A stretch of 47,919 bases of DNA from an uncultured Eubacteriales bacterium (lineage in GTDB: Bacteria; Bacillota; Clostridia; Christensenellales; Aristaeellaceae): the NCBI GenBank assembly GCA_900321295.1, contig ONVN01000157.1, positions 1 through 47,919 of the forward strand. The letters run 5' to 3'. Position 1 is the stretch's first letter. Every line of letters starts with the position of its first letter. A program made the translations under genes and the position numbers. Positions 9,242 through 11,113 of the stretch are shown here, piece after piece. Under the pieces are notes generated by a model. It worked only from the letters and a program-made list of their open reading frames with translations, was not told where the DNA came from and did not search any database.

Positions 9242-11113
9242 ATGAAATCAGAACAGATCGGGAACGTTGTGCTGAATCTGGACAATTGGTCCGGACAGGA
9301 TGAGTACACAGATGGAGAGATTGAGCAGGAATTGCTGAGCATGCTGCAGAGCGGCAGAAGTGAAGCGGATATTCTGCAGGCGGACAATCGGTATCCGATC
9401 CTGTACCATCTTTCGAGAGAACGTGAAAACATCCTTTCATGGTTTCCGTTCTCAAAAGATATGCATGTTCTGGAAATTGGCGCAGGCTGCGGGGCGGTAA
9501 CCGGCGCTCTGATCCGCTCCTGCGGTCATGTCGTCAGTGTCGATCTGTCGCTGACCCGGTCGCGCATCAATGCTGTACGTCATCAGGATGCAGAGAATCT
9601 TGAGCTCATCGTAAGCAATGCGGCGGATTTGCCGGAAAAGCCGGTCTATGACGTCATCACATTGATCGGTGTCCTTGAATATACAAATCTGTTTATGCAT
9701 TCAGAGCATCCCTTTGAAGACGCGCTTACCCATTACAGAAAGATGCTCAAACCCGGTGGACAGCTGCTGATTGCCATTGAAAACCGATTTGGGGTCAAGT
9801 ATATGGCCGGAGCAAGAGAAGATCACCACTGGGCTGTGAATGAGGGGCTGTATGGATATCCGCATCCAGGGGCGAAAACCTTCACGAAGGATGAATTGTC
9901 CAAGCTTCTTGAACGTGCAGGCTTCCGTGAAAAAAAGATCTTCGGGGTTTGGCCGGATTACAAATTCTGTGATGTTCTGTTCTCGGATGAAGGGACGGCC
10001 ATGGTATCGGATGCGTTTGTCTCTTACCCAAATTACGGAGAATACCAGTGGGCTGCCTTTGATCCGCCCGTCGTCATGCGGCAGGCTGTCAAAGGCGGTC
10101 TGGGCATCGACCTGTCCAATTCGTTTTTTGTGTGTGCGGGAGGAACGTCCGATCATCTGCCCGCCTGTGTGAAGTATGCCACTAAACGCAAAGCAGACTT
10201 TGCGATATGCACGAAGATCTACCCGAACTGCAAAGTGGAGAAGGTTGCGCTTTCGTCCGATGGAGCCGAGCGTATGCTGAAGTGCAGAGAGAGAATCGCA
10301 CAGAAGGAGCAGGAAAGCATCATCGCGGAGATGAAGCTGCAGGAAAATGAAACCGTTACGATTCCGTTTTATGAAGGGCAGTCCCTGCTCAAAGCATTCC
10401 GGAATGGAGACAGGGCGACCCGGAAAGAACTGGTCGATGGCTATCTGGCGTTTCTCACTTCCTTCAGCACACCTTCCGGAAGCTGGGGGAATACACTGGA
10501 GTTCACGGAAGTCTTCGGCGATGCAGCCGGAGAGGGCATCTGCCTGAATCCCGCCCCGATTGACATCAATTTTGGGAATATCATCATCCAGAACGGAAAA
10601 CAGATTGTGATTGATCCGGAATGGACGTTTGGTTTTCCTGTCCCTGTAAAGTACATTCTATGGAGAACCTGCTTCCTGTATCAGGAAAGTACAGGCGAGG
10701 ACATCTCGGCATATTTTGAACAATACAGATCCAGCGACGAGGAAATCAGTGTCTGGAAATCGATGGAATACCATTTTGGAGAGTATGTCTTTGGACCGGG
10801 ATCTCCCGCCAGCATCAACAGTCAGTATATGAAGGCTGTTCAGCCTGTAACCCAATATGCAGAGCGGATCGAAGCGCTGAATAAAGGCATAGAAGCGCTC
10901 AGAAACGAGAACAGAGTTGCATGGGAACAATTCTCCGAAAGAGAAAAGTGGCTGGACGAATTGAGAAAAGAAAAGGCCTCGTTGCATGCCCAGCTCAAGG
11001 CGGCCTATGACCGCATAAAACAGCAGCAGGATGAGTTCGATTCGGCGCGCATTGAACTGAACGAACTGAAAAGCAAATGGTTTGTACGGCTCTATCAAAA
11101 AGGAAAACACTGA
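9242..11113 (+). CDS. WbdD-like protein: class I SAM methyltransferase + kinase-like domain + C-terminal coiled coil
   Basis: Motif I VLEIGAGCG (aa 76-84) and LKPGGQLLIAIENRFG. Kinase-like D441-INFG-N446 and IDPEW (D458). Heptad-rich aa ~538-612 (ERIEALNKGIEALRNEN...ELNELKSK). Basic tail KWFVRLYQKGKH. Confidence 0.75.
   Translation: MKSEQIGNVVLNLDNWSGQDEYTDGEIEQELLSMLQSGRSEADILQADNRYPILYHLSRERENILSWFPFSKDMHVLEIGAGCGAVTGALIRSCGHVVSVDLSLTRSRINAVRHQDAENLELIVSNAADLPEKPVYDVITLIGVLEYTNLFMHSEHPFEDALTHYRKMLKPGGQLLIAIENRFGVKYMAGAREDHHWAVNEGLYGYPHPGAKTFTKDELSKLLERAGFREKKIFGVWPDYKFCDVLFSDEGTAMVSDAFVSYPNYGEYQWAAFDPPVVMRQAVKGGLGIDLSNSFFVCAGGTSDHLPACVKYATKRKADFAICTKIYPNCKVEKVALSSDGAERMLKCRERIAQKEQESIIAEMKLQENETVTIPFYEGQSLLKAFRNGDRATRKELVDGYLAFLTSFSTPSGSWGNTLEFTEVFGDAAGEGICLNPAPIDINFGNIIIQNGKQIVIDPEWTFGFPVPVKYILWRTCFLYQESTGEDISAYFEQYRSSDEEISVWKSMEYHFGEYVFGPGSPASINSQYMKAVQPVTQYAERIEALNKGIEALRNENRVAWEQFSEREKWLDELRKEKASLHAQLKAAYDRIKQQQDEFDSARIELNELKSKWFVRLYQKGKH

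Follow-up and report, generated by a model that had tools for sequence, protein, structure and literature searches.

The protein and its four parts

The window considered herein is a stretch of 47,919 nucleotides from an uncultured Eubacteriales bacterium within the Clostridia (GenBank assembly GCA_900321295.1, contig ONVN01000157.1, positions 1 to 47,919). The gene of interest, a complete open reading frame (ORF) on the forward strand at 9,242 to 11,113, encodes a protein for which the role of glycan chain terminator, put forward in an initial annotation of this DNA, remains the best reading, and whose described relative is the methyltransferase-kinase portion of the Klebsiella pneumoniae terminator ORF6-O7 (ORF6-O7-N). 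The features of the gene are as follows.

9242..11113, forward strand: candidate chain terminator ORF (methyltransferase, kinase, coiled coil, and basic tail); complete, ATG start, 623 aa
9242..9961, forward strand: class I S-adenosylmethionine (SAM)-dependent methyltransferase domain, aa 1 to ~240 (Pfam Methyltransf_12/23/11/25/31)
9467..9493, forward strand: SAM-binding glycine-rich loop VLEIGAGCG, aa 76-84, in which G80/G82 correspond to G91/G93 of ORF6-O7
10109..10831, forward strand: predicted kinase domain with a protein-kinase-like (APH/AmiN/methylthioribose-kinase-like) fold, aa ~290-530 (isolated-domain model and Foldseek)
10241..10243, forward strand: K334, an invariant lysine (n=51) in the strand KVEKV; proposed ATP-phosphate-binding (beta3-type) lysine
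10553..10579, forward strand: catalytic loop APIDINFGN, aa 438-446; both D441, put forward as catalytic base, and N446, put forward as metal ligand, are invariant
10610..10624, forward strand: IDPEW, aa 457-461; D458 is the proposed Mg-binding Asp, and D458, E460, and W461 are invariant
10847..11077, forward strand: coiled coil of about 11 heptads, aa 536-612, which would span roughly 11 nm when fully extended (AlphaFold helix and heptad register)
11075..11110, forward strand: basic, amphipathic tail at the C-terminus (KWFVRLYQKGKH, aa 612-623), put forward as a membrane-interface anchor

A GGAG lies ~10 nt 5' of the ATG, and translation of the ORF places every motif named in the initial annotation where it had been reported, namely VLEIGAGCG at aa 76-84, LKPGGQLLIAIENRFG at aa 169-184, AICTKIY at aa 321-327, APIDINFGN at aa 438-446, IDPEW at aa 457-461, and KWFVRLYQKGKH at aa 612-623. 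Pfam recognises just a class I SAM methyltransferase (aa ~68-229, E down to 3.5e-12), with no APH or kinase match at E<=1; neither Pfam nor NCBIfam matches aa 240-530, and aa 525-612 return just weak coiled-coil-type noise. The AlphaFold2 model of the full-length protein, built from a 31-sequence alignment (mean predicted local distance difference test score (pLDDT) 88.6; predicted template modelling score (pTM) 0.81), comprises a Rossmann-type N-terminal domain, a mixed alpha/beta middle, and a single unbroken helix (aa 537-622). The structural matches of the methyltransferase domain are themselves methyltransferases (Foldseek, E=3e-10), and the domain includes a family-specific N-terminal segment marked by Y22, D24-G25, E28, and Y55-H56.

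Foldseek comparison of the full-length model retrieved methyltransferases only, which masked the middle domain; since the whole-model matches were swamped in this manner, aa 240-536 were modelled separately (pLDDT 88.5). The best 50 matches of this isolated domain in the PDB all adopt a protein-kinase-like fold (E 9e-5 to 1.3e-3, probability 0.95-1.0), among them methylthioribose kinase, macrolide 2'-phosphotransferases, APH(3'), Rio1/Rio2, homoserine kinase, maltokinase, corramycin kinase, and one TTK kinase; the modest TM-scores (0.3-0.48) are in line with a two-lobed fold, and AmiN (6sul) is absent from these 50. The kinase fold at aa 300-530, on which the initial annotation had made its reading depend, was thereby recovered. 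When the protein, the family profile, and a kinase-only profile were searched against the sequences of PDB chains, generic methyltransferases or noise came back in place of kinases, and sequence alone therefore cannot name the middle domain.

Conservation was assessed in alignments of 31 and 51 homologues spanning 22-68% identity, in both of which ten residues of the middle region are invariant (S294, R316, K334, D441, N446, D458, E460, W461, P468, and R475). Given these invariant residues, and the D-x4-N...D-x-E-[WF] pattern present in 116 of the 121 family members, the kinase-like signatures are under selection and not the product of chance. K334, which lies in a predicted strand (aa 331-336, AlphaFold2) ahead of a helix (aa 339-353), would be the beta3-type ATP-phosphate-binding lysine; the initial annotation had assigned this lysine to AICTKIY, a motif that is present, but the conserved lysine is K334 of KVEKV and not K325, T324 being the sole conserved residue of the AICTKIY strand. 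D458 is proposed from its motif to be the equivalent of the Asp in DFG, or of that in the ID-x-E motif of APH/choline-kinase-type enzymes, to which IDPEW presumably corresponds.

The heptad register of the coiled coil is unbroken from V536 to R616 (11-12 heptads), with V,I,I,N,F,L,K,L,I,F,L,W at the a positions and Y,L,L,A,R,L,L,A,Q,A,L,R at the d positions. By a home-made, crude heptad measure, distinct from COILS and DeepCoil, 76 residues score >=0.7, compared with a mean of 4.8 in 300 shuffles, one of which reached 71. The unbroken heptads and the single AlphaFold helix bear out the coiled coil first placed at aa ~538-612. A subclade-conserved motif, AWEQFSEREKWLDE, lies inside the coil at aa 560-573; in the form AWxQFSEREKQLD it is kept in the subclade of nearest relatives, and it is repeated in close homologues, with three copies at exactly 42 residues in P0004 and two copies at 49 in P0007. 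In P0006, two regular-expression matches lie 98 residues apart and two degenerate copies can be seen by eye between and after them, which suggests four copies at 49-residue spacing. Each step of 42 or 49 residues adds 6 or 7 whole heptads, as would be expected if the coil were a rod that sets length, for which such expansions are circumstantial evidence.

Over its last 12 residues, the protein has a net charge of +4 and a helical hydrophobic moment of 0.65, compared with 0.56 at the 95th percentile of the protein; a W-[KR]...basic tail occurs in 67 of 116 homologues, and the C-terminal tail may bind the membrane. The four-part order originally described (methyltransferase, kinase-like domain, coiled coil, and basic tail) is upheld by Pfam, AlphaFold, Foldseek, the heptads, and the charge of the tail.

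Membership of the ORF6-O7 family and its distribution

The terminator ORF6-O7 was described in a study of the K. pneumoniae O4 and O7 antigens (J Biol Chem 2024; PMC11231755). It consists, in order, of an N-terminal methyltransferase, an unannotated 223-residue segment whose model resembles the amicoumacin kinase AmiN, an immunoglobulin (Ig)-like domain, a coiled coil, and two glycosyltransferase family 2 (GT2) modules (PMC11231755). In vitro, O-3 of the terminal rhamnose is first phosphorylated by the enzyme, with methylation following; the D441A substitution abolishes phosphorylation, a G91A,G93A construct targets the glycines of the SAM loop, and loss of ORF6-O7 blocks export (PMC11231755). 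The methyltransferase-kinase pair is said to differ from WbdD in sequence and predicted structure, and the orthologues given are from alpha- and gammaproteobacteria and cyanobacteria only (PMC11231755).

For comparison, ~442 residues of ORF6-O7-N, ending at ~450, were rebuilt by optical character recognition (OCR) of supporting information Fig. 9; the rebuilt sequence contains errors and was checked around G91/G93 and D441 against two mutagenesis primers, the G91/G93 primer in the supplement encoding VLEIGAGCGAIT (PMC11231755). BLASTP aligned the window protein to ORF6-O7-N with 34% identity over 333 columns (E=1e-37), and a hidden Markov model (HMM) of 31 Clostridial homologues matched ORF6-O7-N with 261 bits (E=2e-81). 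The ORF6-O7 residues Y28, Y66, G91/G93, E112, Y158, and D441 align with Y22, Y55, G80/G82, D101, Y147, and D441 of the window protein; the position of D101 is Glu in most members, and most SAM-site residues are invariant in the family. Because of the BLASTP match, the HMM match, and these aligned residues, membership is established at the sequence level, and the terminator almost certainly belongs to the ORF6-O7-N methyltransferase-kinase family.

In the same alignment, APIDINFGN pairs with GFIDAVPQN, and N446 falls on the Asn of ORF6-O7. The replacement of the usual catalytic-loop His by Pro had initially been taken as a possible sign of a divergent or dead kinase; a dead kinase is not supported, as the active ORF6-O7 likewise has no His, and variation is seen neither at the catalytic Asp nor at the Asn or the second Asp. 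Since the absent His is a family trait, the kinase domain of the terminator is likely to be active.

The homology search returned at least 1,553 relatives of the terminator; those that are named bear the name "methyltransferase" only and are nearly all from Clostridia (Lachnospiraceae, Oscillospiraceae, Blautia, and Eubacteriales). One relative, at 97% identity, lies on an ENA metagenome contig, and another, at 67%, in the "Clostridia bacterium" metagenome-assembled genome (MAG) GCA_017433065.1; a search for sequences identical to the window protein had no match. Relatives are encoded in at least 571 stretches in a scan of one genome per species, of which 80 loci were kept for counting. Within 10 kb of the terminator, these loci encode Wzm (62/80), Wzt (66/80), rmlC (44/80), and rmlA (39/80), usually in the order rmlC-wzm-wzt-terminator and typically with a Wzt of 415-485 aa. 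The locus of Blautia sp. XA-2221 (L009), with a long Wzt containing Pfam Wzt_C (E=1.4e-44) and two double-GT2 proteins after the terminator, reproduces in full the arrangement known from E. coli O9a, where the C-terminal module of the transporter recognises the modified chain end (PMC9445017).

The subclade comprising the window protein and its nearest relatives has no Ig-like domain. A fixed module of a GT2 (~310 aa), an unannotated ~375-aa protein, and the terminator is found in the window and in L036, L084, and L085; an MBOAT gene (and ALGX) follows the terminator in the contigs of P0001, P0002, and P0006. Where the subclade Wzt is visible, in the window and L036, it is short (245-246 aa) and has no Wzt_C.

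Members of the family also occur in Sulfurovum, a Flavobacteriaceae MAG, a gammaproteobacterial MAG, Paenibacillus, Gastranaerophilales, and a Methanobrevibacter MAG, a wide distribution that fits the horizontal transfer of glycan loci, although some of the MAGs may be contaminated. Loci L055, L014/L017/L019/L021, L030, L066, and L070 represent the Methanobrevibacter, Flavobacteriaceae, and gammaproteobacterial MAGs, Gastranaerophilales, and Sulfurovum and other Campylobacterota. The kinase domain alone matched 1,314 clusters (50% identity) at E<=1e-3 among 1.84 billion representatives. Many of the proteins concerned have no methyltransferase and are fused to RgpF rhamnan synthases or GT2/GT4 modules, which ties the kinase domain to the assembly of glycans, especially rhamnans, and suggests phosphate-only terminators joined to polymerases. 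In P0132, P0198, P0208, P0150, P0187, P0123, and P0241, kinase-containing proteins of 900-1,660 aa without a methyltransferase, the kinase lies either N-terminal to or after the RgpF rhamnan-synthase or GT2/GT4 modules.

The surrounding locus and the proposed capping mechanism

The terminator lies among genes for nucleotide-sugar supply, glycan export by an ATP-binding cassette (ABC) transporter, and glycan assembly and modification.

2805-3371, forward strand: rmlC, dTDP-L-rhamnose supply (Pfam dTDP_sugar_isom E=5.5e-72)
3378-4274, forward strand: rmlA, dTDP-L-rhamnose supply (Pfam NTP_transferase E=3.7e-74)
4564..6000, forward strand: wzm, ABC-2 permease with a TTG start and AGGTGA upstream (Pfam ABC2_membrane, aa 234-437)
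6053..6790, forward strand: wzt, ABC ATPase, 245 aa (Pfam ABC_tran only)
7156-8082, forward strand: GT2 glycosyltransferase (Pfam Glycos_transf_2 E=2.6e-33)
8086-9216, forward strand: unannotated 376-aa protein, between the GT2 gene and the terminator
11133-12551, forward strand: MBOAT (Pfam MBOAT E=2.9e-31)
12508-13707, forward strand: AlgX/SGNH-like (DHHW) protein (Pfam ALGX E=2.5e-16)

With rmlA/rmlC, wzm, wzt, and GT2 in place, the locus is of the ABC-transporter rhamnose-glycan type; the remaining genes of the window are housekeeping and unrelated. The Wzt_C domain is absent from the window Wzt, and tblastn found no remnant of it anywhere in the window. Because this Wzt is devoid of the cap-reading domain, export at the window locus is probably not gated by cap recognition.

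Wzm carries an N-terminal extension of ~230 aa (window 4564-5260) consisting of a transmembrane (TM) segment, ~165 beta-rich-looking residues, a second TM segment, and then a cytoplasmic interface helix, and the extension has no Pfam match at E<=5. By this topology, the extra domain should face outward, and its candidacy as a substitute cap reader was rejected on account of that predicted outward position between two TM segments. Extended Wzm proteins (324-469 aa) are also encoded in many related loci (e.g., L007, L013, L015, L071, and L073).

Downstream of wzt, a GC-rich hairpin and T-run at 6869-6907 (AAAGGTGCAAT...ATTGCACCTTTTTCTT) resembles an intrinsic terminator and would separate rmlCA-wzm-wzt from an operon running from GT2 through the chain terminator. 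The 376-aa protein has no match in Pfam (E<=5), NCBIfam, or PDB sequences; it has a DxD-like YLDPDCY stretch, could represent a glycosyltransferase of no recognised class that partners the terminator, and is, together with the GT2, a candidate polymerase component. The AlgX-like ORF, read from a TTG, overlaps MBOAT by 44 nt, and its true start is probably somewhat later than 12508; the MBOAT and AlgX-like pair probably O-acylates the exported glycan. A 1,130-aa Big_2 surface protein with 11 Big_2 stretches is encoded just 3' of the glycan genes (13868-17260), and a Big_2-repeat surface protein also occurs at 7853-11347 of L084, the contig of a 39%-identical relative.

In the proposed mechanism, a lipid-linked, rhamnose-containing glycan would be polymerised at the cytoplasmic face of the membrane, probably by the GT2 and the 376-aa protein. 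With ATP as donor, the kinase domain (K334, D441, N446, and D458) would place a phosphate on a hydroxyl of the non-reducing terminal sugar, the N-terminal SAM methyltransferase would then methylate this terminal phosphate, and the resulting methyl-phosphate cap would stop further extension. The coil of ~11 heptads and the basic tail would hold the catalytic head at a fixed distance from the membrane; by the geometry of such a tethered head, capping would likely take place only once the chain attains a given length. The polymer would then be exported by Wzm/Wzt and modified outside the cell by the MBOAT/AlgX-like pair.

In view of the homology, the invariant catalytic residues, and the gene context, the protein is likely a bifunctional kinase and phosphate methyltransferase that caps the non-reducing end of the glycan, probably at a rhamnose, the cap chemistry and its terminal position being drawn by homology from the ORF6-O7 prototype. 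That the coiled coil additionally acts as a ruler is a tentative proposal, to which somewhat less than even weight is given.

Several points weigh against this account. Capping by the Firmicute members is extrapolated from a proteobacterial prototype, and the structure of the polymer is putative. The OCR-derived ORF6-O7 sequence has errors and stops at ~450, before any D458-type motif, and the Foldseek E-values (1e-4 to 1e-3) and TM-scores (0.3-0.48) behind the kinase fold are modest. The Wzt proteins of the window, L036, L035, and L062 are without the Wzt_C that couples capping to export in O9a and O7, so that a link which defines those systems is absent. With respect to the ruler, a coiled coil is entirely lacking in ~15 of 116 family members, and the catalytic pair can therefore work without a ruler; moreover, the coiled coil of WbdD is considerably longer than the ~77 residues found here.

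An alternative that is a real possibility, albeit one held with low confidence, is that the protein remains a terminator and the coil instead provides only oligomerisation, membrane tethering, and recruitment of the GT2/376-aa polymerase, chain length being set kinetically by the competition of capping, polymerisation, and ungated export. The conserved AWxQFSEREKQLD looks more like a binding site than a spacer, members without a coil exist, and the Wzt is short and without a carbohydrate-binding module (CBM). Nevertheless, the natural length of the coil varies in exact heptad multiples (42 and 49 residues), as that of a length-determining rod would, and rulers have been demonstrated for WbdD and WbbB.

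It is improbable that the methyl-phosphate, or phosphate, is a non-terminal decoration or is placed on another acceptor, such that polymerisation is not stopped. A Wzt without a cap-reading domain means that the locus needs no terminal cap, and other decorating enzymes (MBOAT and the AlgX-like protein) are present; on the other hand, most family members adjoin a Wzt with Wzt_C, ORF6-O7 acts on the rhamnose at the non-reducing end and export is blocked when the enzyme is lost, and a coil with a membrane tail is the architecture of all known terminators (PMC11231755).

Very improbable, too, is an arrangement wherein only the methyltransferase is active and a pseudokinase binds the glycan or serves as a scaffold, yielding a simple O-methyl cap as with E. 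coli O8 WbdD. O-methyl caps do occur in Gram-positive S-layer glycans, no His precedes the catalytic Asp, and the domain has no kinase match among Pfam or PDB sequences. Yet K334, D441, N446, and D458 are invariant over 22-68% identity, which would be unexpected for a pseudokinase, and the homologous ORF6-O7 domain, also without the His, is an active kinase (PMC11231755).

Finally, a true but divergent WbdD orthologue that has merely drifted in sequence is scarcely credible: the domain order matches, and the slot directly after wzm-wzt is shared with E. coli HS and most relatives, but phmmer and the family profile did not find WbdD in PDB sequences at E<=10, BLASTP against E. coli HS WbdD was not significant, hhalign of the family against the same protein (probability 52%, 76 columns) covered the SAM loop only, the kinase motifs are of a different type with APH, methylthioribose-kinase, and Rio kinases as structural neighbours, and the authors of the O7 study report a differing kinase sequence and predicted structure (PMC11231755). 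WbdD was also absent from the best 50 Foldseek matches of both models, the comparison that the initial annotation had advised, and its description of the protein as WbdD-like does not hold by descent, orthology being rejected from the hhalign and BLASTP comparisons with E. coli HS wbdD in favour of kinship with ORF6-O7-N.

Implications and comparison with known systems

Both ABC-transporter-dependent assembly with a coiled-coil terminator and the ORF6-O7 enzyme family are already known. The initial suggestion that Firmicutes had not been described to have such an architecture agrees with the literature searched, in which no Firmicute description of an ORF6-O7-type terminator was found, although the family itself was described in 2024. 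What is new is the assignment of this family to a Clostridial locus, the finding that it is very common in gut Clostridia, and the occurrence of a variant without the cap-reading Wzt domain. In public annotation, relatives of the terminator are labelled just "class I SAM-dependent methyltransferase", and their kinase is without a Pfam or NCBIfam model; E. coli HS WbdD, despite its experimental characterisation, is given the very same label by the Prokaryotic Genome Annotation Pipeline (PGAP). Terminators of both types are thus invisible in standard annotation.

For many gut Lachnospiraceae, Oscillospiraceae, Blautia, and Roseburia, these results predict length-controlled, methyl-phosphate-capped, rhamnose-containing wall glycans made by an O-antigen-like ABC-transporter pathway, and in commensals such caps might act as immune epitopes and as phage receptors. 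A natural series that bears on the ruler idea is found in the close homologues whose coils have from one to four repeats of 42 or 49 residues, and the variant without Wzt_C bears on whether capping and export can be uncoupled. A broader and unlikely proposal is that gut Clostridia, some archaea, and Campylobacterota cap and measure their wall rhamnans by means of a methyl-phosphate terminator, and that in the present subclade, where Wzt would have lost its cap reader and the terminator travels with the GT2 and the 376-aa protein, the cap has been uncoupled from export. If this were true, the cap and a coil varying by 6 or 7 heptads would set chain length alone; alternatively, the cap would serve a new extracellular purpose (e.g., recognition by the Wzm-fused extracytoplasmic domain or a ligase).

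Among known systems, the closest solved folds for aa 240-536 are those of the APH, choline-kinase, methylthioribose-kinase, and AmiN type, with which the domain shares a bilobal fold, the Asp-x4-Asn loop, and a second metal-binding Asp (Foldseek; D441, N446, and D458). It differs from these in having no Pfam APH (PF01636 type) or PDB kinase sequence match and no His before the catalytic Asp, as well as in being fused to a methyltransferase and a coiled coil and, by homology with ORF6-O7, in presumably acting on a polymer end. A Gram-positive counterpart is WsaE of Geobacillus stearothermophilus, which belongs to an ABC-transporter-dependent rhamnan pathway and caps the end of the chain with a methyltransferase domain; WsaE is not known to have a kinase domain (O-methyl cap) and is fused to rhamnosyltransferases/glycosyltransferases.

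WbdD of E. coli O9a and K. pneumoniae O3 (PDB 4AZS family) resembles the window protein in the order of its parts, in the proposed methyl-phosphate chemistry of the cap, and in gene position, as most relatives likewise follow wzm-wzt; in E. coli HS (O9), wbdD (L081, 17967-20093) stands in the order wzm-wzt-wbdD-wbdA. WbdD comprises a methyltransferase, a kinase, a coiled coil, and a membrane-binding C-terminus, and its structure resembles Src and ROCK (PMC3482155). Its kinase is accordingly eukaryotic-protein-kinase-like, with the pattern WHDDVRPWN...IDFG, whereas that of the window family is APH/AmiN-like, with ID-x4-N / ID-x-E-W. The coiled coil of WbdD is trimeric and its length sets that of the chain, while the polymerase is recruited by the C-terminal region. 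The likeness to WbdD is one of an analogous, probably convergent, domain combination.

ORF6-O7 is a larger protein (1414 aa) in which the kinase is followed by an Ig-like domain and the coil by two GT2 polymerase modules, all of which are missing from the window protein, which instead ends after the coil in a basic tail. The hosts likewise differ, ORF6-O7 being from a Gram-negative O-antigen producer and the present protein from a Clostridia bacterium, and the cap-reading Wzt_C of the O7 export system, absent from the window Wzt, is a distinguishing feature of the export system and not of the enzyme. The two terminators share the SAM loop VLEIGAGCGA[VI]T and the catalytic loop ID-x4-N, a formerly unannotated kinase domain with structural neighbours of the aminoglycoside-kinase type, a coiled coil C-terminal to the catalytic domains, and a setting in which a rhamnose-containing polymer is handled by a Wzm/Wzt ABC-transporter pathway.

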